NCBI GenBank assembly: GCA_963764165.1
Contig: CAVXRD010000002.1
Span: 3,264,001-3,328,000, forward strand
Direction: 5' to 3'
Length of the DNA: 64,000 bases
DNA from: an uncultured Verrucomicrobiae bacterium
GTDB taxonomy: Bacteria > Verrucomicrobiota > Verrucomicrobiia > Limisphaerales > Palsa-1400
Shown here: piece by piece, positions 1 through 46,446 of the stretch
Numbering within the stretch: position 1 is the first letter of the stretch
How the letters are laid out: each line of letters starts with the position of its first letter
Made by a program: the position numbers and the translations under genes
Notes under the pieces: generated by a model
The model's input: the letters and a program-made list of their open reading frames with translations, nothing else
The model's database searches: none
Told to the model about the DNA's origin: nothing

Positions 1-68
1 ATCGCGGTTTAACAGTTACAATCAAGGGTTTGCTATCGATAATCTGACTGATTGGCTTCGCCGTTAAA

Positions 69-893
69 ATGAACTCGCAAGAACACAATTTGGCCGGGGA
101 AGGTCCGCTTTTGACAATCCGTTTTACGGGGCCGACTCTCAATGAGCAGTCGGTGCCGATTTACGATCTTGCTGAAACCCTACTTGCAATCCAAGGAATC
201 ATCAACAAAGCTGCCTTGCACAAAGACGGGCGGCTTGAAAAGGGAGCGCGACTCCGCGCGGCGGAACGCGAAAGAATTGCGCTCCGCATTGTAAGCCATC
301 GCAAGAGTTCGGATGTGTGGCTATTGGGATCCGCTTTAACAGATCCGTCCTTTGGACCAATTCTTCAAGGGCTGATTGTGGTTGGACTCGCGGCTGTAGG
401 CTCCTATGTGGGTAAGAAGGTTTTTGGCACGGGCGAGCAAGCCAAGCATCAGGCGCGCGAACCGCAAACAATACAGGTTTTGGTCGTGAATATTTTCCCT
501 GAAATACGAACGCTCACACATCGTATTCGAGATGATGGTGAGATTGATGGAATAGAATTGCTTGATGCGAAAAGCACGAGTGAAAAAAGTCTCGTAATCA
601 CGCGTGAAACTCAACATTATGTAAAGGAGATTGAGAACCAAAAAGTACCGGGCAACAGATGCAAGATTGTCGGGCACATTATGAGACTTCACTTGCAGTC
701 CTGTCATTTAGATTTAGAGGAGAGATCAGGACACAAGCTTCGAATAAATATGCCCAGCGAGCTTTTCGAGCAGGTGCGGCGACTGGCCAGTCTCCGTGTT
801 GACGTTGTCTTCGAAGGCGTGCCTCTTTACAAGCTAGGCAACCTCAGTAGTAAGTTTGATGAATTTAACGCGGAGCGGCTTCTTTTACCGTGA
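69..893 (+). CDS. Hypothetical island protein (274 aa) with a central hydrophobic helix and a possible C-terminal OB-like beta domain
   Basis: Long ORF with ATG start and lower GC than the core genes; lies in the tRNA-Cys island array; no family confidently recognised. Confidence 0.75.
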   Translation: MNSQEHNLAGEGPLLTIRFTGPTLNEQSVPIYDLAETLLAIQGIINKAALHKDGRLEKGARLRAAERERIALRIVSHRKSSDVWLLGSALTDPSFGPILQGLIVVGLAAVGSYVGKKVFGTGEQAKHQAREPQTIQVLVVNIFPEIRTLTHRIRDDGEIDGIELLDAKSTSEKSLVITRETQHYVKEIENQKVPGNRCKIVGHIMRLHLQSCHLDLEERSGHKLRINMPSELFEQVRRLASLRVDVVFEGVPLYKLGNLSSKFDEFNAERLLLP

Positions 894-954
894 AAATTCC
901 GCAACATTGTCCAGCCCTGAATGGTTCCCGAGGCCACCACCGTGCGCAAGAAGG

Positions 955-1513
955 ATGACTTTCTCTGACCAAAATCACGACGAAATTGTCTTCCGCGTTC
1001 TCTTGCAACGGGAAGAGAACCGGCCAACCCTGACATTCAAGCTGTTGGAACGCTCACTGCCCACCGACCTATTCAGGCAGATCGAATTCGATTGGCGAAA
1101 TTACATCCGCATGGAGGAACTCGAATTCGACTCCGCATTCCAAAAAGCCGTTCGCAAGCACCTCCCAGGCGTTTACTACGTCCTAATGGCTGCGGAATTT
1201 CTGCACAAAATTCCATTTCACTCAGCGCTAGCCCATTTTCTCCAAATCCAGCAAATCCCAGGCCCGCTGCGCGAGGATGAAATCTTCTCCCTTGCCGAAT
1301 TCTTCGCCGACCACGTCCGAAGTACCCGCATTCTCACGCCAGCCGCACCGACAACCCCTCGAACACCACATCACCACGGACGTGTTGCCGCGCCAGATCA
1401 CCAAGAGCCAGTTACAGCGCCACAGAAACCAAGAGGCCCGGTCCGCCGTTGCGCCTTCTGCAAAGAGTTCATAACCGTAAGCGAACTGCAGGGTCATGTT
1501 GACTCCCACCTTA
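955..1513 (+). pseudogene. Hypothetical protein with a C2H2-like zinc finger (CAFC-x12-H-x3-H). It appears to have lost its native stop and reads through to 2010 on the antisense strand of the truncated integrase
   Basis: In ORF 856..2010 the sequence after ...GHVDSHLK is the antisense of the integrase-homologous DNA; ATG at 955. Confidence 0.5.
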
Positions 1514-2091
1514 AGATGCCACGCCAATCGATAGAACGCATTGCGTTCGGGATTTTGCTCGCGGGCGACAATGGCCAGATGTTCTTCGATGGTAATCGCC
1601 CGCTTTTCCTTGAACTTCAATTTTGGCCATTGCAGACGCGGGACGACCGATTTAAGAAGCCAATCCATGCCAATGGCGTGGTTATGTATCCTGCGCAAAT
1701 AAACGTTCGTCGAGACTTTCCCGTCTGCAAGAGCGCGGTCGAAATGTTCGGCGCGAGTTTCCGCGACCACCAACTTGCGGATGCAATCAAAATTCTTGTC
1801 CTTGATTGCGACCTCCCAGCGGCGGCGCGTCTCATCCGTTTTCTTGGCGACAATATGCTCCATGACCTCTTGCCAGGTGCGCGTCGCCAGCTTTGGGTCA
1901 GCGCCGTTCAGATACACTCGCGCCAAAGACAGATTGAAATGCGGTTGCGACTCCGATTCATTGCGCGCCTGCAAGAGCCGTTGCGCTTCCGCTTTGTCGC
2001 TTGTCTTTAGGGTGGTTTGCTCCCCGGTGATCTTGTTCTTGAGGTAATAAACTCCCCACGGACGCCGTATTAGTCCGAATGTCTGTTTCAT
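1513..2091 (-). pseudogene. Truncated tyrosine integrase (N-terminal ~190 aa only), paralog of 12815..13840
   Basis: Colinear with the intact integrase (VYY, LKT.DKAEA.RLL, NLSLARVYL, G.VSTN, KEKRAIT, NPER, WHL). Similarity stops at WHL (~1513), so the catalytic HxxR/LGH/Y region is missing. Confidence 0.9.
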
Positions 2092-2266
2092 TGCTTCACT
2101 CATTCGTTATGAGTGTGCCGCATTCGGCGTCCTTCGCGTTAACGAGCAGTGGACGAGCTATATCCGAGCAGAGACAGATTTCTGAACGGGCAGCTAATTT
2201 GGTGAAGATTCCGGTGAAGATTCGGCCCTTTGCTCCAAGTAACCCCTGATAATCAAGGGCTTAAAC

Positions 2267-2289
2267 TTGGAGGCGAGGGTCGGAATCGA
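2267..2289 (-). repeat. att core: 23-bp direct repeat of the tRNA-Cys 3' end (TTGGAGGCGAGGGTCGGAATCGA), identical to 14004-14026
   Basis: Exact match seen at both positions. Confidence 0.95.
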
Positions 2290-2388
2290 GCGCCTTCGGT
2301 GGCGGACGACAGGGTTATTTTGCCTTATTTCATGGGTGATTCAAGCGGATTGTGTCACTATTTGAACTGCCGGTTTCCACTTGGTTTA

Positions 2389-2424
2389 TTAGCCATTTTG
2401 TTAGCCATTCTGTTAACCATTTTT
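2389..2424 (+). repeat. Three tandem 12-bp repeats (TTAGCCATTTTG / TTAGCCATTCTG / TTAACCATTTTT); probable integrase arm-type sites
   Basis: The same TGTTAGCCA motif with 12-bp period recurs at 13937-13962, near the other att end. Confidence 0.7.
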
Positions 2425-2437
2425 GATCGTATTTGGT

Positions 2438-2806
2438 TCAAGCGGGCAAATGATCTGCCGGAAAATAGGAGCGATATTTCGCGCGGGGGTCGGTCGGATG
2501 GCTGCCAAACGGATTGAAGTTGCCGCAAGGGTGTTGCCAGACACTGCGCCTCTGATTCCAATGGAATCCCATCGCCCAGAGCAACGCCGCAAGATTCGGC
2601 TTTCGCGACGGTGAAACGTCGAGCCAAACCCATTTGCCGACTACTTCTGCCAATTCATAGTGCCTCGGCAGTCTGGTTCTCAAGGAATTCAAAACCGCCT
2701 CCGTGGAAAGTCCACGATTAGCGCAGTGCGCGGCAAATGTTTTTGAAACCGACGATGGCCGGACATTCGCCGGAGCTGACGCTTCATTATGTTTTGTTGT
2801 TTTCAT
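2438..2806 (-). CDS. Small mobile-element protein (122 aa) with an 'EVVGKWVW...GFHW...W...RAKY' pattern
   Basis: ATG at 2806; the motif pattern resembles a recurrent phage/ICE hypothetical family (from memory); lies directly downstream of a large stem-loop. Confidence 0.75.
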   Translation of the reverse strand: MKTTKHNEASAPANVRPSSVSKTFAAHCANRGLSTEAVLNSLRTRLPRHYELAEVVGKWVWLDVSPSRKPNLAALLWAMGFHWNQRRSVWQHPCGNFNPFGSHPTDPRAKYRSYFPADHLPA

Positions 2807-2828
2807 AGCTTTTTTTTGAAACCGCTGT

Positions 2829-3029
2829 CCGTCACCCTGCCGTTTGCTGCTCGCTTCACAAACGGGGAGACACCGAGCCGGGGCGCGGAAGCGCATTCAA
2901 AACTCAGCGAAAGCTAAAACCGTGACAGTGGCGAAGTGGGAGAAGTGGCGACGCTGGCGCGGTTTTTGATCTCGCTCCTAACTTTCGGCTCGGTGTCGGA
3001 CCAGCGAGCAGCAAACGGTGGGGTGACGG
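2829..3029. promoter_or_regulatory. Long interrupted inverted repeat (~200-nt stem-loop); candidate single-strand origin or Frpo-like ssDNA promoter
   Basis: Perfect arm pairs: 2829-2837/3021-3029 (9 bp), 2840-2855/3003-3018 (16 bp), 2869-2880/2986-2997 (12 bp); a further hairpin at 3224-3288. Confidence 0.65.
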
Positions 3030-3459
3030 CGGGCGTAAAAAAGGCGAAGACAAACAACCTGACCTGTCCCCGCTCGTTTGGAAATTTCTGAAGCCGTGAG
3101 AGTAAAGGAGCGTTTGGGCTGGCCGCCCGCGTGGGGGAAATGGGGCGCGGATCAGCGGACGGACCAAAAAGCGGAATGGAGCGGCGGATTTAGAAATTTG
3201 CCAAGGGAGCGCCGATTGGGCGAGCGCAAGTCTGTGAGCTTTCGAGGCGTAGTCTTTCAAGGGGAATCGAAAGCTGACAGTCTTGCGCGACAGGGCGGGC
3301 GATCGGGGCATGCACATTGACTTTTTGCGCTGCATGATTAGTTTTAGCCGTGAAAATAACCATTAAAGTTGTTACGGTCGCGCATGGAGGTTGGACCAAA
3401 CCAGACTTGCGGGGAGATGCCATTCAGCAATTTCCGCCGACTTTCAAGAAACTTGATTT

Positions 3460-4236
3460 ATGAAGCCTGGCGATGAGCTTGATAATCTCTATGCCCGACT
3501 GAAAGGCATTCACCAATTGCAAGGCGCGATGACGTCGCAAACACCCAAGGATGTTAATTGGATTGTCGCAAGACTCTGTAACCTTCGCGTTCTCACTCAG
3601 TCGGAAGGCTTTTCGCTTCGGGTTAATGAATTTGTAGGAATAGAACGAGCCGAGTTTTCAGGAATACCAGAAAGGGCTGCCCAGGTAATGGCAATTTTAG
3701 AGAGTCGGCGTTCGAAAGCGCTTTTGATCTGGGCTATGCAAAAGCCGATTGCGTTGGCTGTAGTCTTTAGCGATGTGACCGACAGTGTGGTGCTCAACAA
3801 ACGACTCGGGGAAGTCAAGTGGCAGGAGATTTTGGAGGCGCATTTTGCAAGCGCCCGTATTCTCGTAGAGAAGAATGGCGGCTTTTTCGTAAAGGATATT
3901 GGCGACGCATTGATGGCGCTTTTCCATGACGCGGCTTCTGCACTGGATTTCACAATTGAACTCCGCAAGAATCCAGTCGATTCACAAATTGCGGTCCGCC
4001 AAGGCGCTCATATCGGAGAGGTGATCGTGAAGCTAAACGACGCTGTGGGACAGAACGTCAATAAGGCGAGTCGCATTGCAGCAAAAGCGAAGCGCGGCGC
4101 AATAGTAATGTCAGAGGAATTTTTCAATGATGTTCAACGGATAAATTCGCCCGCACATGCTCGCTTGCCGTGGCAAAAATCGCCAAATAATCGCATGAAA
4201 GGTTTCGATGGAACATTTGTGCTTTGGAAGGTCTAG
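3460..4236 (+). CDS. Class III adenylate/guanylate cyclase domain protein with a ~95-aa unknown N-terminal domain
   Basis: Motifs VVFSDVTDS, VKDIGDALM, RQGAHIGEV, DAVGQNVNKASRI. Confidence 0.9.
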   Translation: MKPGDELDNLYARLKGIHQLQGAMTSQTPKDVNWIVARLCNLRVLTQSEGFSLRVNEFVGIERAEFSGIPERAAQVMAILESRRSKALLIWAMQKPIALAVVFSDVTDSVVLNKRLGEVKWQEILEAHFASARILVEKNGGFFVKDIGDALMALFHDAASALDFTIELRKNPVDSQIAVRQGAHIGEVIVKLNDAVGQNVNKASRIAAKAKRGAIVMSEEFFNDVQRINSPAHARLPWQKSPNNRMKGFDGTFVLWKV

Positions 4237-4253
4237 CGCAGACCTCGGGCGGC

Positions 4254-5156
4254 TCAAACCGGACGCCTATTACGCCGAATCAATGCTTCCAAAGCTGCAA
4301 TCGTCATTATCTTGGTCCCATTGTGAATCATCGCGTGGCAGTTTGGACAGATCGGGCGCAAGTCTGCAATCGGGTCAATCACATATTCCTTCCGAATTTC
4401 AGATAACGGCTTGAGGTGGTGAACGTGGATAAAACCGCTGCCTACCTCACCATAAACTTTCTCAAAGTCGAAGCCGCAGACTGAACAACGACAGCCGTAG
4501 TGTTCAATGCACCGCTGGCGAGCGTACGGGTTGCGCTCGTAGATGCTGAGAAACATGTGCCGCATCGCGCCTTCTTTATACTGTGATTTCAAAAGGATTG
4601 ATGGAGAGGCATTCGTGGGAATGTCACCACTGGCGATGGTAGCCAGGTCAGGACCGGGTACCGGCGGAACCGGCGCGTGAGCCTTGGGAAAGCTTGGTTC
4701 TTGCGATTCCTTCGGTGCGATAACTCCCGGTAAAGAAAATGAAGCGAACTTGCCCCTTGCTAATTCCTCAGCAAGCGTTGGTGGCGCAGGTTGTGGAGGT
4801 GGATTTGTCAGCCGATTCTGCATTTCCTGATGGCTCTTGTGGATAAGCTGGCGTCTGAGTCTATCAGGGGGAATCGGGGTTTCGCCCCTCATGTCCACAA
4901 CCACATGAGGCCGCAATTCAGTGGGGCAGGGGCGGATCGTTGTAAAATAACGTCCAAGACGCGTATGGATGACCCTCAATTGGCTGTATAATTTTCGATG
5001 TTTGGCTCCTATTGGTGGCTCCAGAATTATCCCGTCTTTGATTTGGGCGTACCAAAGTCCCTTTCGTTCTTCCGAAACTCGGGCGCACCATTCATCTTCT
5101 CTGACTTTGGCGTCCCATGCTTCCTGAGCTTGCCTTCTCTTTTTTAAAGTGGTCAC
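4254..5156 (-). CDS. HNH endonuclease with an McrA-like C-terminal domain and a Pro-rich, unknown N-terminus
   Basis: YERNP.AR..CI.HYG..C..CGFDF...YG..G..FIHVHH..PLS...DL.P.CPNCHAMIH. The probable GTG start at 5156 overlaps the upstream TGA (GTGA); start uncertain. Confidence 0.85.
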   Translation of the reverse strand: MTTLKKRRQAQEAWDAKVREDEWCARVSEERKGLWYAQIKDGIILEPPIGAKHRKLYSQLRVIHTRLGRYFTTIRPCPTELRPHVVVDMRGETPIPPDRLRRQLIHKSHQEMQNRLTNPPPQPAPPTLAEELARGKFASFSLPGVIAPKESQEPSFPKAHAPVPPVPGPDLATIASGDIPTNASPSILLKSQYKEGAMRHMFLSIYERNPYARQRCIEHYGCRCSVCGFDFEKVYGEVGSGFIHVHHLKPLSEIRKEYVIDPIADLRPICPNCHAMIHNGTKIMTIAALEALIRRNRRPV

Positions 5157-7978
5157 GGCGATTGCACAACCCGATAAAACCGTTGAGCGTCGGGGCCAAT
5201 GGCGGCCGACAAGGTAACGACGCCGTTGGTTGCAACCAGGGGATACCCCAGCGCGTTCCAATTCGGCTGTGTCAGGCTGGTCTTGAATTGGAGTTGATAT
5301 GTTTGTCCCGCGACAGCGCTCCAAGTCAGCGTCAAGGCATTGTTCGCTTGGGTCACTGTTTGAAACACGGGCGGCGGGCTGAAACTGAAAACGGTTCCAA
5401 CGCCACCGCTGCCGCCACTGTCAGTTACGCCGTAGAAGTTGCCGTCGCGGCCTTGAAGCAGGCCGGATAAAGGGGTTTCGCCATTCGCACCGTTGAACGC
5501 GAGCAATGTTGTCAATGCGCCTGATGGGGTCATTGTGAACACGGTGCCGTCGTTGTACGCGCCGCCCCCGGACGTTGTGCCGTAGAAATTCCCGTCGGTT
5601 CCTTGGACAAGACGGCAGTAAGGATAAGAGCCGTTCGTTTGATTGAATGAAACCAGAACGGCAAATGATCCGGCAGGCGTGATTTTGAAAATTGTGCCAT
5701 ATCCGATGCCGCCGTTGACGGCTGACCCGTAAAAATTCCCGTCGGTGCCAAGAGCCAATTCGGCATGAGGATAAGCACCGTCAAACCCATTGGTAAACGC
5801 ATAGAGCGCTCTCAACACGCCATTCGTCGTGACCGCAAAGATCGTGCCCCATCCAGTATAAGCCGAACCATTGAAGCCAACCCCGCCGGAAACCGCGGTG
5901 CCGTAAAGATTCCCGTCGTTTCCAAGCGTCAAGCCTGCCCAGGGATTTGCTCCGTTGGTTCCGGTGAAGGACAGGAGAGGGGCAACTGAGCCGGATGCGG
6001 TCATTCTAAAAATCGCGCCGTAACCATAGCCAGCCGGGTCTTGGGAGAAATAGGCCCCGCCGTTGGCAGTTGTGCCGTACAGGTTGCCGTCAGCGCCGTA
6101 AGCCAAGCCGGAGTGGGGATTTGCCCCATCGGTGGCGGCGGAGAACGAATGGACAGGCGACAGCGCATTAGGTGGAGTCAACTTGAAAACAACGCCATTT
6201 CCATTTTGGCCTCCGTACGCGGTTGTGCCGTAGAAGTTCCCATTGCTCAATTGAATGAGGTTTGCATAATTGTACGGAGTGCGTCCGTCCGTTCCATTGA
6301 ATGATGCCAGATTCGTCAGCGTCCCATTTGGCGCAATCTGAAAAACCGTTCCGTAGTTCGCCGCTCCGGCTTGCAGCGTAGTGCCATAGAAGTTTCCGTC
6401 AGTCCCTTGCACGAGTCCAGTTTGAGGGTTTTCGCCATTCGCGCCAGAGGATGGAAATGAATAAAGCTGGTGAAATATAATCTTCTGCGCGGCGTATAAG
6501 CCTGTGGCCGTTGTTGTCTGATTGGAATTCACTGCGACGGTTTGGCTGGGGGGCGTGGTCCAATCCGCTACTGGGGAGAATCCCACCGCATGGCTGCCCA
6601 CCGTCAAACTGGCGACAGTTGATCCGTTGGTTTGCCAAGCACCTCCGTCCACCTCCCACCGCGCTCCGTCAGTCACGGCCCCGCCTGGACTGAGCGTTAC
6701 CTGTAAGGAACCAACGGCCGGACGAACAAAGGTCAGGCTGAAAACGGTTCCACCAGTTACCGAAGCAGCACCACCCTCCAATGTTGTTCCGTACAAATTC
6801 CCGTCGTTGCCTTGAGCCAGGCCGGTGGAAGGGTAACTGCCATTTGTACCACTGAACGCAAGCAATGTCGTCAACGCGCCGGAGGGAGCCACTTGGAATA
6901 TGGTGCCGGCGTTATCCAAGCCTCCATAAACAGTAGCGCCGTAAAAGTTGCCGTCAGCGCCTTGGATCAGACCTCCAACCGGGGCGGAACCGTCGCTCCC
7001 ACCCGTGAAGGAATATAATGTGCTCAAGGCACCTTGGGAGTTTATTTTGAATACGGTCCCATTACCGCTTGGCCCATAGCCATTGTAGCCCGGGCCGCCC
7101 TGCCGTGTTGTGCCGTAAAAGTTGCCGTCGCTTCCCTGCACTAATGCGCCTGTTGGATATTCACCGTCGGGGCCGGTGAACGAATAAAGAGATGTCAAAA
7201 TTCCCGATGTAGTAATTTTGAATACCGTGCCCTCAGAACTTAGTGTGCCGCCATATTCGGTCGTGCCATAAAAATTACCATCCGCTCCTTGTAATAGCTC
7301 CGCGTGAGGAACGTCGCCATTATCGAAATTCTGAGCCGTCCCTCCTGTCAGTGCCCCGAACGAAACGAGCGTCGTTAGCGTACCGTTCGTGGTTAGGCTG
7401 AACACCGTTCCATTGTTCATGTGATATCCACTAGTCCCGCCGTAACTGGTGGTGCCGTAAAAAGGGCCATCCGCGCCCCGCACCAGGCCCGCCAAAGGAT
7501 ACCCGCCGTCATTACCTCCTGAAAAAGTGTAGAGCGTTTTGAAAATGCCCGCCGGGCTGATCTGGAAAACCGTGCCGGGAATGGCCGGGTTGCCATTTGG
7601 ACTGGTGCCGGAAGTAACGCCGTAGAAATTGCCGTCACCGCCACTCGCTAAAGCACCTAATGGCGTTTCGCCATCGCCGTACGGCCCCGTGAATGAGTGC
7701 AAAGATGTCAAAGCACCGGATGGAGTCATTTTGAACGCCGTTCCGTAACCATTCGTTCCTCCTCCGGAAGTTGTGCCATAAAATGTCCCGTCAGGGCCTT
7801 GGATCAAGACTCCAAGGGGTCCTTCGCCATCGTTTCCGCCGGTAAACGAATAAATTACTTGAAAGCTGACGGCTCCGCGTGCGTGAGAAAACGGAAAGGC
7901 AACGGCAAGAATCCAGACAATGCCGAGGCACCGTCGTGCGCATCGTGTCGCGGTGGAGATTTTTGATTGGTTGCTCAT
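5153..7978 (-). CDS. Secreted Gloeo_Verruco (GloVer) tandem-repeat protein, ~940 aa
   Basis: Signal peptide; two blocks of many 'QG.DGNFYGTT..GG...GTVFK.TP.G.LT.L.SF' repeats; C-terminal 'YQLQ...W...RFYRV' tail. Confidence 0.9.
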   Translation of the reverse strand: MSNQSKISTATRCARRCLGIVWILAVAFPFSHARGAVSFQVIYSFTGGNDGEGPLGVLIQGPDGTFYGTTSGGGTNGYGTAFKMTPSGALTSLHSFTGPYGDGETPLGALASGGDGNFYGVTSGTSPNGNPAIPGTVFQISPAGIFKTLYTFSGGNDGGYPLAGLVRGADGPFYGTTSYGGTSGYHMNNGTVFSLTTNGTLTTLVSFGALTGGTAQNFDNGDVPHAELLQGADGNFYGTTEYGGTLSSEGTVFKITTSGILTSLYSFTGPDGEYPTGALVQGSDGNFYGTTRQGGPGYNGYGPSGNGTVFKINSQGALSTLYSFTGGSDGSAPVGGLIQGADGNFYGATVYGGLDNAGTIFQVAPSGALTTLLAFSGTNGSYPSTGLAQGNDGNLYGTTLEGGAASVTGGTVFSLTFVRPAVGSLQVTLSPGGAVTDGARWEVDGGAWQTNGSTVASLTVGSHAVGFSPVADWTTPPSQTVAVNSNQTTTATGLYAAQKIIFHQLYSFPSSGANGENPQTGLVQGTDGNFYGTTLQAGAANYGTVFQIAPNGTLTNLASFNGTDGRTPYNYANLIQLSNGNFYGTTAYGGQNGNGVVFKLTPPNALSPVHSFSAATDGANPHSGLAYGADGNLYGTTANGGAYFSQDPAGYGYGAIFRMTASGSVAPLLSFTGTNGANPWAGLTLGNDGNLYGTAVSGGVGFNGSAYTGWGTIFAVTTNGVLRALYAFTNGFDGAYPHAELALGTDGNFYGSAVNGGIGYGTIFKITPAGSFAVLVSFNQTNGSYPYCRLVQGTDGNFYGTTSGGGAYNDGTVFTMTPSGALTTLLAFNGANGETPLSGLLQGRDGNFYGVTDSGGSGGVGTVFSFSPPPVFQTVTQANNALTLTWSAVAGQTYQLQFKTSLTQPNWNALGYPLVATNGVVTLSAAIGPDAQRFYRVVQSP

Positions 7979-8171
7979 ATTCTTATCTCGTTGCCGGCCC
8001 GCGCTTCCCGTTGGCGGACCTCGGCCAGGGCGATAAAGCACAATTGCGAGACTCGGAATAAAAAGACATACCTTCAAGAATCCGCTTCATGGCCACCCTG
8101 GGCAAGAAGATTGTGAGTTGGGTGGGTGGGTGGATTGTCGGCCCAGAATGGTATTCATTCCGAAATGCAGA

Positions 8172-8753
8172 TCAACTCGGAATGAGTGCGGACAAGTGTA
8201 ATCGCGACAATAGACTCGATAAACCATGCCGCGCCTTCGCCAACAACTTAAATGCGGTTGCAATGGGCTTCTTTAGGTCGGTATAGGCTGTGCTACTTGC
8301 GGCCAACCTATAAATCCACTTTTTTTCAGGGTGGCGCTTAAGAAAGGCCGTTAAGTCATTGCCGGCACCAAACTTTTTGAGATAAACAAACCCACACATT
8401 GCCCAAACGTCTGCCTCCCACTCTTTGCCCTTTTCAGAGTGAAAAACGAGTCGGACGCCGCGCCTCACTTTAGCGGCAAAATCAGCAATCGCATCTACTT
8501 TCCAATTAATGTTCAGATACCAAGGAGAATGCCTGCGCGGCTTGATTCTCTTAAAGTGCAACAGATAATGCGCAAACTCATGGAGCAGAGTAAAAACATG
8601 CTCGCACCGGGGTTTGTTGGCGTTGATCAAAATACGGCGCTCGCGTGGCAGAAGTTTGCCGTAAACGTTCTCGGGTAAATGATCGACAAACCTGACCTTC
8701 AAGCAAAGCTGCTTGGCCGTTTCTCGAAGGATGTTTTTAGTCTTGAATTTCAT
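8172..8753 (-). CDS. ImmA/IrrE-family metallopeptidase (putative anti-repressor)
   Basis: FTLLHEFAHY (HExxH) with a downstream EWEAD; ATGA overlap with the upstream XRE gene. Confidence 0.88.
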   Translation of the reverse strand: MKFKTKNILRETAKQLCLKVRFVDHLPENVYGKLLPRERRILINANKPRCEHVFTLLHEFAHYLLHFKRIKPRRHSPWYLNINWKVDAIADFAAKVRRGVRLVFHSEKGKEWEADVWAMCGFVYLKKFGAGNDLTAFLKRHPEKKWIYRLAASSTAYTDLKKPIATAFKLLAKARHGLSSLLSRLHLSALIPS

Positions 8754-9139
8754 TTGCTTGCCGGGCGTTGCTTGTTTTTCACAAAGCGTTTGATCATTTT
8801 AAGAACGTCGGGAAGCTGACTTTTCGGTATTGCTGCCAGTTCCCGCACGATTGGGCCAGCTTCCTCCATTCGGAAAAACTCCAATGCTTGATCGTTGGGC
8901 CGTCCGGCGGATTTGAAAAGCTCGCCGTCGGGAATATTCAAAACTCGTTCAAGTCGGTCAATGGCGTCAGTGGATGGCACGCCGCGCTCGCCGTTCAGCA
9001 ATAGCGACAGATACGCGGGCGAAATATCGGCGTTCCTGGCCACCTGGCGCAGAGACAATCCGTCCTTGTGCTCATCCATCGCTTTCTTGAGCAGCCGGAT
9101 GAACCGTTCTGGCGCTTTCGCTGGCTTGTTTTCGGTCAT
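8750..9139 (-). CDS. XRE-family HTH repressor (ImmR/cI-like)
   Basis: LSLRQVARNADISPAYLSLLLNGERGVPS HTH; divergent from a Cro-like gene. Confidence 0.9.
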   Translation of the reverse strand: MTENKPAKAPERFIRLLKKAMDEHKDGLSLRQVARNADISPAYLSLLLNGERGVPSTDAIDRLERVLNIPDGELFKSAGRPNDQALEFFRMEEAGPIVRELAAIPKSQLPDVLKMIKRFVKNKQRPASK

Positions 9140-9148
9140 TTCGCGGCC

Positions 9149-9245
9149 AATTTAGCGCAATGTTTACTGATTGTCAACGGTAATTGCGATTTTCGAGGTC
9201 TGTTTGCGTTTTCTGTGTTTACACCGTGTGAACATGTGCCACATT
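9149..9245. promoter_or_regulatory. Divergent promoter pair with two related operator palindromes
   Basis: Minus strand: TTGACA (9177-9172), 17 bp, TAAATT (9154-9149), just before the repressor ATG. Plus strand: TTTACA (9218), 16 bp, CACATT. Operators TGTTTAC-N5-GTCAACG (9161-9179) and TGTTTAC-N5-GTGAACA (9216-9234) overlap the two -35 elements. Confidence 0.7.
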
Positions 9246-9257
9246 CACCATGAAAGT

Positions 9258-9578
9258 ATGAGTTGCGTGTTTAAGAATCGACTGGCCGAATGCCGTGCCG
9301 CCAAAGGGATCAAAAAATCTCAGCTGGCGTATTACATCGGCAAGAGCCGGGGGTATGTGACGCGCCTGGAGGATGGCGACATTTCCCCAAGTGCCGAGGC
9401 CATGGTGCGCATTGCCCGTTATTTCGGCAAGCCGGTCGAGGACATTTTCCAACTGGTCGAGGAGGGCAAGCAAATGAAGGCGGGCGAATCGACATTAGCC
9501 AATTTCAGCAAAGAACAATTTCCCGTTCGTGTCGGCAACGCGCGGGACTCAGTAACCACGCCGATTAACAGTAAATAA
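9258..9578 (+). CDS. XRE/Cro-like HTH regulator
   Basis: NRLAECRAAKGIKKSQLAYYIGKSRGYVTRLEDGDISPS...IARYFGKPVEDIF. Confidence 0.88.
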   Translation: MSCVFKNRLAECRAAKGIKKSQLAYYIGKSRGYVTRLEDGDISPSAEAMVRIARYFGKPVEDIFQLVEEGKQMKAGESTLANFSKEQFPVRVGNARDSVTTPINSK

Positions 9579-9586
9579 GAAAGCCT

Positions 9587-9853
9587 ATGCAGATCAAAGT
9601 ACTAGTTATTGACAAGGTGACGGAGACCTTCGACACAAAGAAGGGGGCCAAGACGCTCCACTTGTTGGTGTGTCAGGATCAATCCCGCCCGCCGCTGCGA
9701 AATTCGTTCGATTATGAGATGACGGCGGATGAATTCACCAAGCACGGCGCGGGCCTCGTGGACAAGCTCGTCGAACTCAACATCCGGGATATGACCCAGA
9801 ATTTCGCTGGGCGCATTCGGATGTCGGGGGCCATCCTGAAAGCTGCCGCATAA
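9587..9853 (+). CDS. Small beta-rich protein, probable OB-fold ssDNA-binding protein
   Basis: 88 aa with an alternating beta-strand pattern and an 'FDTKKG' hairpin; TAATG-coupled to the HUH Rep. The fold is inferred. Confidence 0.6.
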   Translation: MQIKVLVIDKVTETFDTKKGAKTLHLLVCQDQSRPPLRNSFDYEMTADEFTKHGAGLVDKLVELNIRDMTQNFAGRIRMSGAILKAAA

Positions 9854-10353
9854 TGGAAACGGCACTGACATATACGCTGCAACGCGTTTGCTGGCAGTTT
9901 TTCGGCTCTCTGACATTCAAGAGTGCCAAACTGCCGGAACGCGTGCGGCTGACGATGTTCTTTGCCCTCGTCCGCTGCCTGTGCCGCTGGCACAAAGTCC
10001 CCTTTCGCAAATGCGTCTGGGCTTTGCGCCAGGAGCCGGGGGAAATCAGCGGACGACTTCACTTTCATTTCCTGATCGCGGGTTTGCCGCCGTATGCCGT
10101 CCAGGTCGCCACATGCATGAGTATCAAGGCGCAATGGGAAGAACTCGGCGGCGGCATGGCTCGCGTCAGGAAATACGATTCGAGAAAACAAGGTCTCGAA
10201 TACACGTTAAAATGTCTCAGCGTCACGAATGGGGGAGCGAATCTCTATGAAGTGGGGAAGTTTTCCTATTCGGCGGATGAGGTGATGTTGGCGAATGCAA
10301 TCTGGGACCGGGCTAATATTGCACGGGTTTCAGATACCCTTGGCACTGCCTAG
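9853..10353 (+). CDS. Minimal HUH rolling-circle replication initiator (Rep)
   Basis: Motif I FFGSLTF, motif II GRLHFHFLI and motif III LEYTLK in canonical order within 166 aa. Confidence 0.85.
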   Translation: METALTYTLQRVCWQFFGSLTFKSAKLPERVRLTMFFALVRCLCRWHKVPFRKCVWALRQEPGEISGRLHFHFLIAGLPPYAVQVATCMSIKAQWEELGGGMARVRKYDSRKQGLEYTLKCLSVTNGGANLYEVGKFSYSADEVMLANAIWDRANIARVSDTLGTA

Positions 10354-10388
10354 TCGAACGCTCGGCGGCAGTAAATTCGTCAACCGAT

Positions 10389-10438
10389 TCGGGCGGGGGG
10401 TGGAGCGCGCGCGGAGCGCGCGCCCACCCCCTGCCCGA
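10389..10438. other. GC-rich ~23-bp hairpin with a GGA triloop just downstream of rep; candidate origin (dso/sso) element
   Basis: TCGGGCGGGGGGTGG(A)GCGCGCGC-GGA-GCGCGCGCCCACCCCCTGCCCGA; no U-tract follows. Confidence 0.55.
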
Positions 10439-10563
10439 TGGCTTGAAGATGAACTCTGTCCAAATGAAATCAACCGAAATGAAAATGCTCTGGAAACTGG
10501 TGAAGCCCAGCGAGCCAGTCCTAGCTGAGAGATGATAAAAACACCGTAATATCATAATACGAT

Positions 10564-11226
10564 ATGAAGCAGATCATTACTAAAGTGGATGTATGCAAGG
10601 CCATTGGCGATTTGGCGGGCCAAGCCAAGAAACCCACGCTGGCCGCCATTCACGCAGCGTTGAATAACCGAGGCTCGATGTCCACGTTGGTGCGTCTAAA
10701 GGCGGAAATTGATGCCGAAGCGCAACCGGTGACAGACTCCCTTGACGGGCTGAAGGCGTTTCGCGAAGTGTGGGCATTGGCTGTCGAGGAAGGCCGTCAA
10801 CAGCAGGAGGGCGCGCTCGTGGAGGCTCGCGAGAGTGTCAAAGCATTGGCTGCTGAAAATGATCGCTTGGAAGGGGTGGCGGTAGCCGCGCACAATCGCG
10901 CCGCCGAGTCGGATATTGCGAGGGCACGCGCCGAAACAGAGTTAATGCAATTTAGAGGCCAGGTGGAAACGGAACTTAAGCAAGCCAGAACCAGCCAAGC
11001 AGAGGCCGCAGCACAAGCAGCCGATGCCTTGCACAAGCTGGCTGCGGATCGCGCAGCACATGCGAATCAAATCGCATTACTCCAGGACAGTGTGGCTGCA
11101 GCGACACGCAAAGCCCATGATCTTGAATTGAATTTGGTCCGTGCTGAAACACTGGTGCAGAAAGAGCAACGTCGAGTTACGACGCGGAAGTCGGCTCGGA
11201 CGGGAGGACAAGAAATTGCGTCATAA
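10564..11226 (+). CDS. KfrA-like DNA-binding coiled-coil protein
   Basis: N-terminal KPTLAAIHAALNNRGSMSTL (KfrA_N-like HTH) followed by a long Ala/Glu/Gln coiled coil. Confidence 0.8.
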   Translation: MKQIITKVDVCKAIGDLAGQAKKPTLAAIHAALNNRGSMSTLVRLKAEIDAEAQPVTDSLDGLKAFREVWALAVEEGRQQQEGALVEARESVKALAAENDRLEGVAVAAHNRAAESDIARARAETELMQFRGQVETELKQARTSQAEAAAQAADALHKLAADRAAHANQIALLQDSVAAATRKAHDLELNLVRAETLVQKEQRRVTTRKSARTGGQEIAS

Positions 11227-11242
11227 CCGGGGACTTCTTGAA

Positions 11243-11572
11243 ATGAACACGGATAAACAAGTTCAAGGAAATCGACCTGCCTGCGTGGGAATGGAAGAGG
11301 CGGCGGCGATTTTCGGATGGCCAAATTATTACCTGCCGTTTCTCATGAGGGCGGGGCATCTAAAGCCGCTGGGCAAGCCAGCGCAGAACGCTCGCAAATG
11401 GTTCGCAAGGATTGAAATCGAGCGGATGAGCGCCGATCCTGTTTGGCTCGACAAGGCTATTCGCATCGTGGAAAGGCAGATTCAGGAGATGAACAAAAAA
11501 GCAAAGGGACAAACAACCATCCTTGACAACAAATTAGGCCCGAATAACGATACAGGGAACGGCCACGAATGA
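11243..11572 (+). CDS. Excisionase-like winged-HTH protein
   Basis: MEEAAAIFGW...LMRAGHLKPLG...KWFAR.EIER pattern; context within the integrative element. Confidence 0.7.
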   Translation: MNTDKQVQGNRPACVGMEEAAAIFGWPNYYLPFLMRAGHLKPLGKPAQNARKWFARIEIERMSADPVWLDKAIRIVERQIQEMNKKAKGQTTILDNKLGPNNDTGNGHE

Positions 11573-11606
11573 CCCGTCAATAAATTTGCAAGCTTCTCTG
11601 TTTTTC

Positions 11607-12173
11607 ATGCCATCGAATGCTTACACAAATCACCTCACCGTCCTGTTAAGTGACGTCAGAGAGTTGCAGACCGCCCACAGTCAACTAAGAACGGGTGCGG
11701 TGGGGCGTCAGTGGGGCTTGGGCGCGTTAAGCCGTGCCGCAGTCGTTCTGGCCGTCTCTTCGTGGGAGGCATACTTGGAAGAAGTTGTCCGGGAGTGCCT
11801 TGAGGCTATTCGTCCGGGAGTGCCGCCTCTTGGCATTTGGCCAGCACTCAACGCTTCGATTCGCGGCGACCTTGGACGCTTCAATACACCAAATGCGGAG
11901 AATACTCGCAAACTGTTCTTGGACAGTTTTGGGATCCCCAATATCACTGGTGAATGGCATTGGCGCAATTGCACGCAGGAACAGGCATGTATCGCACTAA
12001 ATGATGCGCTCACCAAGCGTCATCATATTGCGCATGGCGTCAATCCGAGACCAACTATTCACAATGCTTACGCGAAATGGTTGCCGGGATTTATCGGCAG
12101 GTTGGCGCAGCACACCGATGCAGGACTCCAGCAACACTTTCAAACCACGTTCCACATCAACTTGGCATGGTAA
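11607..12173 (+). CDS. HEPN-domain RNase (RiboL-PSP/MAE_28990-like), putative defence/Abi effector
   Basis: RAAVVLAVSSWEAYLEE helix, FNTPN and an intact RxxxxH motif (RHHIAH). Confidence 0.85.
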   Translation: MPSNAYTNHLTVLLSDVRELQTAHSQLRTGAVGRQWGLGALSRAAVVLAVSSWEAYLEEVVRECLEAIRPGVPPLGIWPALNASIRGDLGRFNTPNAENTRKLFLDSFGIPNITGEWHWRNCTQEQACIALNDALTKRHHIAHGVNPRPTIHNAYAKWLPGFIGRLAQHTDAGLQQHFQTTFHINLAW

Positions 12174-12631
12174 GATTCTCGAAACATATGGTTTGCGTGG
12201 GTTGAAATGTCCAATGACAGGCGCGGCATTTATTCCGTCGGTTCAGGCTTCGCGCGGCAATGAAAAAGTTTGATTGTTAAGCTGCCGTGTGGAATTGATT
12301 TTGTGTTGAACAAACGTTCAACGGCTGAAAGTAAAAGTGCGTCTGAAACCTGCGATGACGAGTAAAATTTCACCTAAACCCAAAAGAAAAGTGAAAAATT
12401 ATGCCCGATCCCAAAGAAGCCGGTATGGACAAGCAAGCGAATCAGCCCGAACCGAAGATGCGCGAATACATACCGTATAAAGGAATGGTATTCCTGTGCA
12501 GGGCGACGCTGACGCGCCATGCGACGGTGAATTCGAGTGGATGCCAGACAACGGTGATTAGACGAAATTAAACAAGTCGGCCAGTGAGTGTAAGCTTGCT
12601 GGCCGATATTGTTTGGCAGCTTAAACACTCT

Positions 12632-12771
12632 CCTTTCCCGTCGGAAAGGGCGCGGAGCGGGGAGGCCAGCGCAGCGGTGGGCAGAGTCCAGAGGCAATGC
12701 CTCTGGCGGCGGGGTTTGGGGACGGCAGGGGAGTCCCCAACGAACCAAAACCGGTTTGGCCGTCACCGGCC
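12632..12771. other. Cluster of short GC-rich hairpins after the integrase 3' end (possible ssi/sso signal)
   Basis: CCTTTCC/GGAAAGG, CCAGAGGC-AAT-GCCTCTGG (12688-12706), TTGGGGAC/GTCCCCAA, CCAAA(A)CCGGTTTGG. Confidence 0.45.
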
Positions 12772-12814
12772 TAGCTGGGGCGTTGGGGCCGTGTCGCAAA
12801 AATTGGCGGGTGCC

Positions 12815-13840
12815 TTACGTCGCCGGGGCAACTTTCACGGAAGCCCGCTGTTCGTAATCCTCCAAGGATGGAATTTTCATCAAGGCCCGTTTCGCGTAGG
12901 CGCGATGGACGGCCTTGCTATTGTGCCCTAATGCCTCCTGCGCGAATCGTTCGGGATAGCCGACCGTCTTGGCGCGTTCCGCCCAAGCATAGCGGTAACT
13001 GTGCAACGTGACGCCGACAATGCCAAGCTGACGGCAACGCGAAGCAAATTCCGTGGCGCGGTCGCCAGCGCGGACGCCGGACAAATAGGGGAAAAGTGGG
13101 CCTTCGCCGGGCAAGTCCTTGAGCAGATTCAACGCCTCACCGCCCAAATGCACTAGTACCGGCACGCCGGTTTTCTTCCGTGTAAAACTCACCGTGCCAT
13201 TTGTCCAGTCCACGTCTTGCCCCTTCAAGTTAGCGATGTCGCCTTGGCTCGCGCCAAGGTGCCAGCACAATTGATACAGCGTCTTGCGTTCGGGGTTCCC
13301 TTCGGCGGCAATGATTCGCTGGTGTTCCGCAAGGGTGATGGCGCGTTTCTCCTTGTAGTGAATGGCGGGCCATTGTCGGCGCGGAATGACCGTGGCGGGG
13401 AGCCAGTTCATATCAACAGCGAAATTGTGAACCTTCCGCAAAAACGCGTTGGTTGAAACCGTGCCGGAACGCAACACGGCCAGCAAGTGCTCAGCTTGCG
13501 TTTCGATCAAGACACGGTCGAGGATCGAGGTGAACGCTTTGTCCTTGGCGGCGGATTTCCATCGCGTTTGCGTGGGGCCGGTTTTGAAGGCGATAATTTC
13601 TTCCAGCACGTTTCCCCAAGTGCGAGTGCTCACGAGTGGGTCACTGTGGCGGAGATAAACGCGGGCCAGGCTCAAGTTCATGGCGGGCTGTTTGCCTGCC
13701 TCGTTCATGGCCATCAGCAGCCGATTTGCCTCGGCTTTGTCCTTGGTCTTGAGGCTGGTAAATGTTTTGGTGGTGTCGTCGAAGGCGTAATAGACGCTCT
13801 TGCGGCGAAGGAATAAACGATAACGCAGTTTCATGTTCAT
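12815..13840 (-). CDS. Tyrosine recombinase/integrase
   Basis: RKKTG, LHSYRY (HxxR), LGHNS and HRAY (catalytic Tyr); adjacent to the tRNA att site. Box I reads LGASQGD. Confidence 0.93.
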   Translation of the reverse strand: MNMKLRYRLFLRRKSVYYAFDDTTKTFTSLKTKDKAEANRLLMAMNEAGKQPAMNLSLARVYLRHSDPLVSTRTWGNVLEEIIAFKTGPTQTRWKSAAKDKAFTSILDRVLIETQAEHLLAVLRSGTVSTNAFLRKVHNFAVDMNWLPATVIPRRQWPAIHYKEKRAITLAEHQRIIAAEGNPERKTLYQLCWHLGASQGDIANLKGQDVDWTNGTVSFTRKKTGVPVLVHLGGEALNLLKDLPGEGPLFPYLSGVRAGDRATEFASRCRQLGIVGVTLHSYRYAWAERAKTVGYPERFAQEALGHNSKAVHRAYAKRALMKIPSLEDYEQRASVKVAPAT

Positions 13841-13908
13841 GCGTCATCCAGCCTACCGGGGCGAAGATTCCGTTAGTCAGGCAATAGCGGGAGAATCCTC
13901 CCGAATTG

Positions 13909-13962
13909 TGGCGCAATTCTGGCGCAATCCGAAAATTGTTAGCCAAACTGTTAGCCATTGAC
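13909..13962 (+). repeat. Tandem motifs TGGCGCAAT x2 and (TG)TTAGCCA x2 between the integrase and att; probable arm/accessory binding sites
   Basis: Read directly; the second motif matches 2389-2424. Confidence 0.65.
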
Positions 13963-14004
13963 TTTCCGTGTCTCCTAACTCCTTGCCGCGCACGCGGTTA
14001 GAAT

Positions 14005-14079
14005 TGGAGGCGAGGGTCGGAATCGAACCGACGGATACAGCTTTTGCAGAGCCGTGCCTTACCACTTGGCGACCCCGCC
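14005..14079 (-). tRNA. tRNA-Cys (GCA)
   Basis: GGCGGGG acceptor stem, CTGCAAA anticodon loop, GGTTCGATTCC T arm, U discriminator and encoded CCA. Confidence 0.97.
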
Positions 14080-46370: not shown

Positions 46371-46446
46371 TGGGGTGGCCAACGGGACTCGAACCCGCAA
46401 CAACAAGCTCCACAAGCTTGGACTCTACCATTGAGCTATGGCCACC
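46371..46446 (-). tRNA. tRNA-His (GTG)
   Basis: G-1 plus GTGGCCA stem, TTGTGGA anticodon loop, GGTTCGAGTCC, encoded CCA. Confidence 0.97.

Follow-up and report, generated by a model that had tools for sequence, protein, structure and literature searches.

A Capsid-less, tRNA-Cys-Integrated Relative of Inoviruses in a Verrucomicrobiae Genome and Its Possible Role as a Filamentous-Phage Satellite

Introduction

The window analyzed in this report is a stretch of 64,000 nucleotides (NCBI GenBank assembly GCA_963764165.1, contig CAVXRD010000002.1, positions 3,264,001 to 3,328,000; start at G000:C2:3264001 in our numbering) from the genome of an uncultured Verrucomicrobiae bacterium (7.0 Mb, 97% complete). 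Near its left end is an 11.7-kb element with an integrase, a repressor, and a rolling-circle replication initiator (Rep), in which no gene for a virion or for conjugation was recognized. How might such an element move from cell to cell? The original prediction, made from the letters alone, was that it excises, makes circles of single-stranded DNA (ssDNA), and relies on a helper phage or a conjugation system. A small number of Vibrio elements are known to be satellites of filamentous phages (PMC3545932).

We put at about even the chance that this is a tRNA-Cys-integrated, capsid-less sibling of inoviruses that likely excises, is copied as a single-stranded circle, and is packaged by a co-infecting inovirus as a satellite of the RS1 and TLC type, with an integrase of its own.

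Results

An exact 23-bp direct repeat, identical to the 3' end of tRNA-Cys, delimits the element at a spacing of 11,737 (Table 1), in agreement with the predicted att-bounded element. Two further copies of the repeat occur in the genome, one on contig C1 and one 7.2 kb farther to the left, which delimits a second, tandem element. The predicted gene positions were also correct, and Pfam supports the integrase, XRE, Cro, ImmA, and HEPN assignments. No pI/Zot gene was found between the att ends with Pfam or with a profile from 14–18 Verrucomicrobiota pI sequences, and no coat-like hydrophobic open reading frame (ORF) was found on the Rep strand of the Rep-to-integrase interval. The coat hidden Markov model had no match anywhere in the genome, and no type IV coupling protein (T4CP) or FtsK was matched within the element. 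These Pfam, pI-profile, and coupling-protein scans bear out the description of an integrative element of the rolling-circle type that lacks genes for a virion or for conjugation (Zot/pI, coat, T4CP). That description had passed over a conserved 122-aa ORF and a truncated pI/Zot gene ~620 bp to the left of the window. The latter (PF05707, 1e-12) lies in the second tandem element, precedes a Xis paralog, and ends at 291 aa. Its 86%-identical homolog in the same-genus genome G118 is 436 aa long and is found 3' of genes for an ssDNA-binding protein (SSB), a coat protein (PHROG major coat, 2e-6), and pIII-like and pVI-like proteins, and 5' of Xis.

The predicted HUH fold of Rep is supported by motifs I–III and by searches with a structural model. 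In an alignment of 23 sequences, H70, H72, and Y117 are invariant and K120 is found in at least 90%; the match to Pfam PF23343 (7e-4) is below the cut-off. The AlphaFold model has a mean pLDDT of 75, with residues 113–141 poorly modeled. The best structural match in the VIA search is SIRV1 ORF119 (Z 8.8, root-mean-square deviation 3.0, 108 aligned), followed by parvovirus NS1 (Z 7.7) and, at slightly lower scores, ribosomal S6-type ferredoxin folds. Foldseek against the PDB placed parvovirus/AAV Reps and pMV158 RepB in the top rows, none at E ≤ 0.001. Against BFVD there were 149 matches at E ≤ 0.001, and those with names are microvirus and ORF2/G2P replication initiators.

This resemblance to microvirus and ORF2/G2P initiators also fits an explanation that we consider unlikely, in which the element is an integrative mobilizable element (IME), Rep doubles as the relaxase, the origin doubles as oriT, and a conjugative element provides the transfer. 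An ImmR/ImmA-type switch is present, as in ICEBs1, and the host has two elements with a coupling protein, Replic_Relax, and a primase. The 122-aa ORF and the structured region at 12575–12815 recur beside RadC/DUF6573, in one copy ~8 kb from a TraG-type gene. The integrase, the att sites, a Rep-like relaxase candidate, and the lack of a mating pore are all as in an IME. The window Rep may be related to the phage initiator PHA00330 itself. Putative relaxases akin to phage rolling-circle replication (RCR) initiators such as PHA00330 are found in streptococcal IMEs (21 elements; PMC5704250). However, 19 of these 21 carry the coupling protein TcpA (PMC5704250), whereas coupling-protein, FtsK, and relaxase searches gave no match inside any scanned Rep-bearing element. 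In addition, neither VirB4 (PF03135) nor PF02534 was matched in the host genome, and the nearest relatives of the SSB, Rep, and origin are those of inoviruses.

The 88-aa gene upstream of Rep had no Pfam or PHROG match. In the ESM Atlas, its product matched PF17426 Putative_G5P at 0.93, with a recognition score under its threshold, and otherwise mostly unnamed Verrucomicrobiota clusters. The protein is 75% identical to the product of the gene in the gV position, upstream of Rep, of an inovirus (L255, below; loci are designated by L numbers). The predicted SSB label is backed by these two matches. Filamentous-phage SSBs of the gV type keep DNA single-stranded for export. The element has the RCR Rep, predicted gV-like SSB, and predicted origin that make up an inovirus replication module.

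The predicted origin is a GC-rich hairpin directly 3' of Rep. Its stem varies widely in length and sequence among loci while pairing is kept, and it is followed by the invariant GCTTGAAGA. A hairpin of −15 kcal/mol or better precedes GCTTGAA in 55 of 74 Rep loci, compared with 0/74 on the opposite strand and 0/70 in upstream controls. C-GNA-G, a very stable DNA triloop, accounts for 42 of 58 loops; one Rep subclade mostly lacks this hairpin-GCTTGAA motif. The nick position was assigned by analogy with CTTG/A origins, which we take to represent the phiX174/pC194-type consensus, and the + strand is therefore the predicted displaced strand. CTTGATT is listed among the predicted nick sites of a cyanobacterial plasmid (PMC6066503).

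All three hairpin regions of the original prediction fold better than shuffled sequence, with z values of −7.87 (10345–10460), −7.86 (2800–3340), and −4.29 (12575–12815). In the inverted repeat at 2829–3029, which is 87–98% conserved in 7 relatives, both arm mismatches are G·T on the + strand. The fold energy of the + strand minus that of the − strand is −9.3, compared with −3.0 ± 2.6 for shuffled sequence, an excess of ~2.4 standard deviations. The template strand folds better in 17 of 17 loci in the region upstream of the 122-aa ORF, an arrangement reminiscent of Frpo, the ssDNA promoters in the leading regions of plasmids (PMC9849209). No clear −35/−10 pair was found in this region, and for that reason we only infer that the repeat is a candidate single-strand origin or ssDNA promoter.

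The SSB-Rep cassette, the hairpin, and GCTTGAA are common to the window family and to complete Verrucomicrobiota inoviruses. Some of the latter are built as SSB-Rep-[coat, pIII, pVI, pI]-Xis><Int, and their virion block falls precisely at the place where the window element has none; the slot from coat to pI is occupied in the window by the KfrA-like gene. The order is SSB-Rep-origin-coat-pIII-pVI-pI-Xis><Int in L086 and SSB-Rep-...-pI-Xis><Int-tRNA in L145, and in both the Xis gene faces an integrase of the window's family. Further inoviruses with this Rep are L055, L059, L061, L064 (some from Prosthecobacter/Brevifollis), and L128. L255 is a 7.5-kb metagenomic contig with a permuted inovirus (pIII-pVI-pI-SSB-Rep-origin-coat) that has no integrase or terminal repeat; its SSB and Rep are 75% and 73% identical to those of the window, and it has the same hairpin and motif. 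The element has two features of a satellite of the RS1 and TLC type: its own replication module without morphogenesis genes, and the homology of this module to those of plausible helpers (L255, L086, L128, and L145).

In quick, unrooted trees, L255 is sister to the 23-row capsid-less/unclassified clade of the window (SH-aLRT 98; this tree was computed from 51 selected rows, with three long branches left out). A second capsid-less clade has L128 as its sister, and L086 clusters with the capsid-less L057, to which it is 77% identical over 1.1 kb of SSB-Rep-origin. The inovirus label, carried by 9 rows, requires 7 changes, a number in keeping with a virion block that was lost repeatedly or with exchange of modules. 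An additional locus, L085 (G118:C70), has an inovirus-like block, SSB-coat-pIII-pVI-pI-Xis, beside a CRISPR array, with no Rep or origin motif detected on the contig. This virion block and the Rep-only elements of the same genome could be complementary modules.

The family was delimited by a scan of 185,579 species genomes, which gave 59 loci, and by a sample of 95 Rep domains of at least 120 aa, 83 of them distinct, that was seeded with the window's Rep and is biased to its clade. The records that hold the closest relatives of the Rep bear the title Verrucomicrobiota, some of them Limisphaerales, and the Rep profile has matches in 53 of the 401 genomes of the order. Among the 83 distinct Reps, 9 are inoviral (pI within 8 kb downstream), 59 are capsid-less, and 15 are on contigs too short to be classified. 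A Xis-like gene lies within 1.6 kb of 31 of the 83; after another 14 comes a second integrase family (L002, counted among them, is really a Xer-DnaG-RHS element), 10 are in other pI-less settings, and 4 are in XerCD-DnaG-RHS elements. Rep is followed directly by Xis in 45 of 80 metagenomic loci and by the second integrase in 5; there are 2 other pI-less loci, 1 inovirus, and 27 too short. Fifteen relatives are bounded by tRNA-end repeats that enclose Rep (1.2–9.6 kb, at Val, Thr, Cys, Lys, Pro, and Asn tRNAs), and L162 has the whole layout of the window in 12.7 kb at tRNA-Cys. Tiny att-bounded forms of 1.2–3.0 kb were also seen, namely L036:9369-10661 (SSB and Rep alone), L021:9486-12233, and L150.

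The original prediction proposed integrase, ImmA, Rep, and KfrA as the conserved synteny, and this did not hold. KfrA is present in 2 of 31 Rep-Xis genome loci and ImmA in 6 of the 28 with enough sequence, and on these counts both were rejected as family markers; they are accessories, and the inducible switch is therefore swappable. In 27 of the 31 loci, an SSB gene lies no more than 400 bp upstream of Rep; 10 of 21 have a convergent integrase at a distance of up to 4.5 kb, and 8 of 20 have the 122-aa ORF. The conserved core is SSB-Rep-origin-Xis(-Int). The Xis-like assignment itself is weakly supported, with 4 of the 23 family members matching HTH_17 (best E 0.005). A second Xis candidate, the 56-aa ORF at 12401–12571, was not supported, with no Pfam match and no paralog.

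Values of dN/dS between the window and its relatives are 0.07–0.37 for Rep (13 pairs), 0.05–0.30 for SSB (9), 0.07–0.13 for Xis (5), and 0.06–0.15 for the integrase (5, one a duplicate locus). These ratios (0.04–0.37 overall) and the intact ORFs show purifying selection on the core genes. In all 26 full-length members of the integrase family, G-[AGS]-[SA]-Q-x-D stands in place of GxRxxE, so that the first catalytic Arg is missing, and R-x-K is invariant, two residues ahead of the catalytic Lys. A single genome can have as many as 9 paralogs, and many of these accompany att-bounded elements. In a search of 5 relatives for an empty attB, every inspected tRNA-Cys site was occupied by the same integrase family.

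These data bear on whether the element is instead a decaying or domesticated inovirus prophage, immobile and stripped of its virion genes. Decay is evident in the neighboring tandem element, where pI and the integrase are truncated; on the tree, inoviral Reps fall among capsid-less ones; and the first catalytic Arg is missing from the integrase family. However, the core ORFs are all intact with low dN/dS, and the Arg substitution is common to the whole integrase family, including many members with att-bounded elements. Two capsid-less clades, of 14 and 17 rows (SH 98), are spread over many genomes and tRNA targets and over two integrase families, and the direct Rep-Xis arrangement prevails among the metagenomic loci. 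We find decay quite improbable. A related concern of the original prediction, that the homologs might be fragments of larger known ICEs or inoviruses, is justified insofar as genuine inoviruses have this core as their replication module. The capsid-less forms are not simple fragments, because they outnumber the inoviruses in the sample, form clades of their own, and are under purifying selection. The proposal of an uncharacterized Verrucomicrobia family is supported, in that this appears to be an uncharacterized family of the Verrucomicrobiota.

Table 1. Features of the Element and Its Boundaries in the Window
Feature	Coordinates	Strand	Evidence or remark
Truncated integrase of next tandem element	1228..2103	−	outside attL
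attL core	2267..2289		23 bp, copy of tRNA-Cys 3' end
TTAGCCA short repeats	2386..2421 and 13936..13959		inside both element ends; likely integrase arm sites
Conserved 122-aa protein	2438..2806	−	no Pfam family; 1345 homologs
Long imperfect inverted repeat	2829..3029	+	27-nt arms; upstream of 122-aa ORF; candidate single-strand origin or ssDNA promoter
Second inverted repeat	3224..3288		22-nt arms
Class III nucleotide cyclase domain protein (cargo)	3460..4236	+	PF00211 1e-8
HNH endonuclease (cargo)	4254..5324	−	PF01844 4e-7; true start probably farther downstream
GloVer choice-of-anchor tandem-repeat exported protein, 974 aa (cargo)	5153..8077	−	TIGR03803
ImmA/IrrE-type metallopeptidase (accessory)	8172..8753	−	PF06114 Peptidase_M78 2e-7
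XRE repressor	8750..9139	−	HTH_3
Cro-like helix-turn-helix (HTH) protein	9258..9578	+	HTH_3
Inovirus gV-like SSB (predicted), 88 aa	9587..9853	+	Atlas match, inovirus identity
Minimal HUH rolling-circle Rep	9853..10353	+	motifs FxxLTF, RxHFH, YxLK; model searches
Predicted double-strand origin	10389..10449	+	GC hairpin, C-GGA-G triloop, then GCTTGAAGA; predicted nick after 10445
KfrA-like coiled-coil protein (accessory)	10564..11226	+	weak PF11740 KfrA_N 0.0085, below cut-off
Conserved Xis-like HTH protein	11243..11572	+	also 3' of pI in inoviruses L085, L086, L145
HEPN (RiboL-PSP) protein (cargo)	11607..12173	+	PF18735 3e-13
Structured non-coding region	12575..12815	+	common to loci with 122-aa ORF, RadC, DUF6573
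Tyrosine integrase	12815..13840	−	PF00589 1e-9; family without canonical first Arg
attR core	14004..14026		inside tRNA-Cys (14005-14079, −)

Discussion

We propose that the life cycle of the element would begin with cleavage of the XRE repressor by ImmA, which would de-repress the Cro-SSB-Rep-KfrA-Xis-HEPN operon. The integrase and Xis would then excise the 11.7-kb circle. Rep would nick the + strand at GCTTG/AAGA and displace it, and the gV-like protein would coat the displaced ssDNA. The pI and coat proteins of a helper would extrude the coated strand as a longer filament. In the recipient, the hairpin at 2829–3029 may prime the second strand, drive the antisense 122-aa gene, or both, and the integrase would insert the element and its cargo at tRNA-Cys.

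Packaging by an inovirus is favored because complete inoviruses (L086 and L145) use the same parts in the same order, and L255 carries the SSB-Rep-origin cassette in a permuted genome. The origin motif is shared, the gV-like SSB is kept (27/31 loci; dN/dS 0.05–0.3), and no T4CP, FtsK, or relaxase was matched. The truncated pI in the adjacent tandem element and its full-length counterpart with coat, pIII, and pVI in the same-genus genome also argue for it, as does the layout of repressor, anti-repressor, SSB, and Rep, which matches that of RS1 (PMC3545932). The helper need not be resident, because TLC is packaged by a non-resident phage (PMC3545932).

Several observations weigh against this interpretation or fail to support it. 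No attP joint was among the joints listed from 5 metagenome runs, which concern contigs of core relatives only, a result that is neutral as to excision; just 5–9% of the words were present in the public runs. Scans of IMG/VR with the Rep alignment and the pI-like protein gave no relative of either. A blastn comparison of 8 inovirus loci gave the origin region as the sole shared stretch, although packaging signals are structural and may be missed. The SSB-Rep cassette is also found in XerCD-DnaG-RHS elements and is therefore a promiscuous module, and the trees, being unrooted, set no direction for loss or gain of virion genes. The genome itself holds only the truncated pI, with no coat match. 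Potential helpers are rare, with Rep in 53, pI in 15, and both in 10 of the 401 genomes, and in 5 of these 10 the Rep is the inovirus's own. A pI gene is found in 5 of 48 genomes with a non-inovirus Rep and in 5 of 348 Rep-negative genomes, counts in which kin are not independent and contigs are fragmented.

The scarcity of helpers would be expected if the element were a self-amplifying integrative rolling-circle plasmid without a dedicated helper, spread by vesicles, transformation, or generalized transduction after a rise in copy number. No pI was detected in 43 of the 53 Rep-positive genomes, the cassette is combined with three or more integration systems, and element sizes vary from 1.2 to 12.7 kb. 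However, the gV-like SSB is kept under strong selection, and a pure plasmid would not need an SSB of the export type. We give this explanation a small chance.

If the element is indeed a satellite of inoviruses, it may represent a large hidden class in Verrucomicrobiota of soils and peats, which arose by repeated loss of the virion block, outnumbers its helpers several-fold, integrates itself at tRNA genes, carries defense cargo, expresses an early antisense gene from a hairpin of the incoming strand, and goes unseen in pI surveys. This broader proposal is tentative, and we hold it with less than even confidence.

In RS1phi of Vibrio cholerae, RstB is the SSB. RS1phi likewise has a repressor, Rep, and anti-repressor and no morphogenesis genes; its replication genes are homologous to those of the helper filamentous phage, with which it forms tandem arrays (PMC3545932). 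In contrast, it integrates at dif via host XerCD, is ~3 kb long, and has a non-proteolytic anti-repressor. The window element has its own integrase, a Xis-like gene, a tRNA-Cys att site rather than XerCD/dif integration, an ImmA-type protease, a minimal HUH Rep, and ~6 kb of cargo. Packaging by a helper is demonstrated for RS1phi and predicted for the window element. TLCphi has an HUH rolling-circle Rep, a repressor, and no virion genes, and is packaged by the non-resident filamentous phage fs2 (PMC3545932, PMC9226527); it differs in its use of Xer with XafT and in lacking the SSB-Rep-origin-Xis-Int scaffold. Pf phages encode coat and pI, both of which the window element lacks. Pf4 and Pf5 have their own integrase and a tRNA target. 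They also have their own excisionase, a divergent repressor, and a Rep initiator (PMC7379572). The streptococcal IMEs with RCR-type relaxases (PHA00330, PF02407, and PF01719) resemble the element in their tyrosine integrase, tRNA sites in some cases, ssDNA-phage-related Rep, and lack of a mating pore (PMC5704250). Most of them carry TcpA (PMC5704250), which was not found in the window family, and the closest homologs of the window element, shared origin included, are in inoviruses.

In the global survey of inoviruses the marker was pI, so capsid-less relatives would be invisible to it, and its main text mentions "Verrucomicrobia" and "satellite" 0 times (10.1101/548222). Filamentous-phage satellites are thus already known; the integrase-encoding, tRNA-targeting, cargo-bearing, and widespread version of the Verrucomicrobiota is absent from the literature searched, with most subscription journals and bioRxiv supplements outside its scope. 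The searchable signature SSB-Rep-hairpin-GCTTGAA, the candidate helpers with matching origins, and the exact predicted nick site make helper–satellite relations directly testable in an abundant soil phylum. If the proposal is correct, it also provides a transfer route for restriction, toxin–antitoxin, HEPN, and HNH cargo.

Other Genes and Neighboring Elements

The 122-aa ORF is antisense to Rep or pI/Zot in 15 of 16 distinct loci, and the family motif is VVGKWVW...LGFHWN...WQHPCG. No name was obtained from Pfam, PHROG, NCBIfam, or PADLOC, and no clear solved fold was found (best Z 3.9); the best BFVD match is a Fusobacterium phage "molecular chaperone" (E 8.7e-3). The family (window 2438–2806; L007:4297-4650; L011:8297-8734) recurs with RadC and DUF6573 behind structured DNA. 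The protein is a candidate early anti-defense protein.

Within the cargo, the cyclase at 3460–4236 was not accepted as Pycsar, with weak PycC matches and no effector partner seen. The HNH protein has a weak match to type IV restriction enzymes, and the GloVer gene is of host type with many paralogs in the genome. The 136 cargo ORFs scanned in relatives include restriction-modification, MmeI, PIN, Cas1/Cas2, and PEP-CTERM genes; in L016:11787-13172, Cas1/Cas2 lie between Rep and the integrase without an evident cas operon.

Members of the family also appear in bins titled Saccharimonadales (L012), Kapaibacterium (L042), Klebsiella (L046), Uhrbacteria (L049), Bifidobacteriaceae (L056), and delta proteobacterium (L063); these contigs are probably mis-binned. 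Tandem XerCD-like, DnaG/CHC2, and RHS elements with the same Rep and origin, some with SSB, are found at L001/L002 (G000:C1:194000-216000), L037, L040, and L045, and that of L001 adjoins a CRISPR array and an IS110-like gene.

The second tandem element of 7.2 kb (L003:14031-20000 plus window 1–2266; G000:C2:3259030-3266266) contains the truncated integrase, a 274-aa ORF, a Thoeris ThsB-like TIR protein (PADLOC 1.6e-32), the truncated pI/Zot, Xis, and a HupE-TonB receptor fusion, and a third integrase element lies beyond it. Elsewhere in the genome (L163–L166; G000:C1:1.545-1.575 Mb and C4:0.75-0.78 Mb), two elements carry coupling-protein ATPases, Replic_Relax, a DnaG-like primase, and a serine recombinase; one of them also has ArdC-RadC and a type I restriction-modification system and lies beside comM. 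The sole other tRNA in the window is tRNA-His at 46371–46445.

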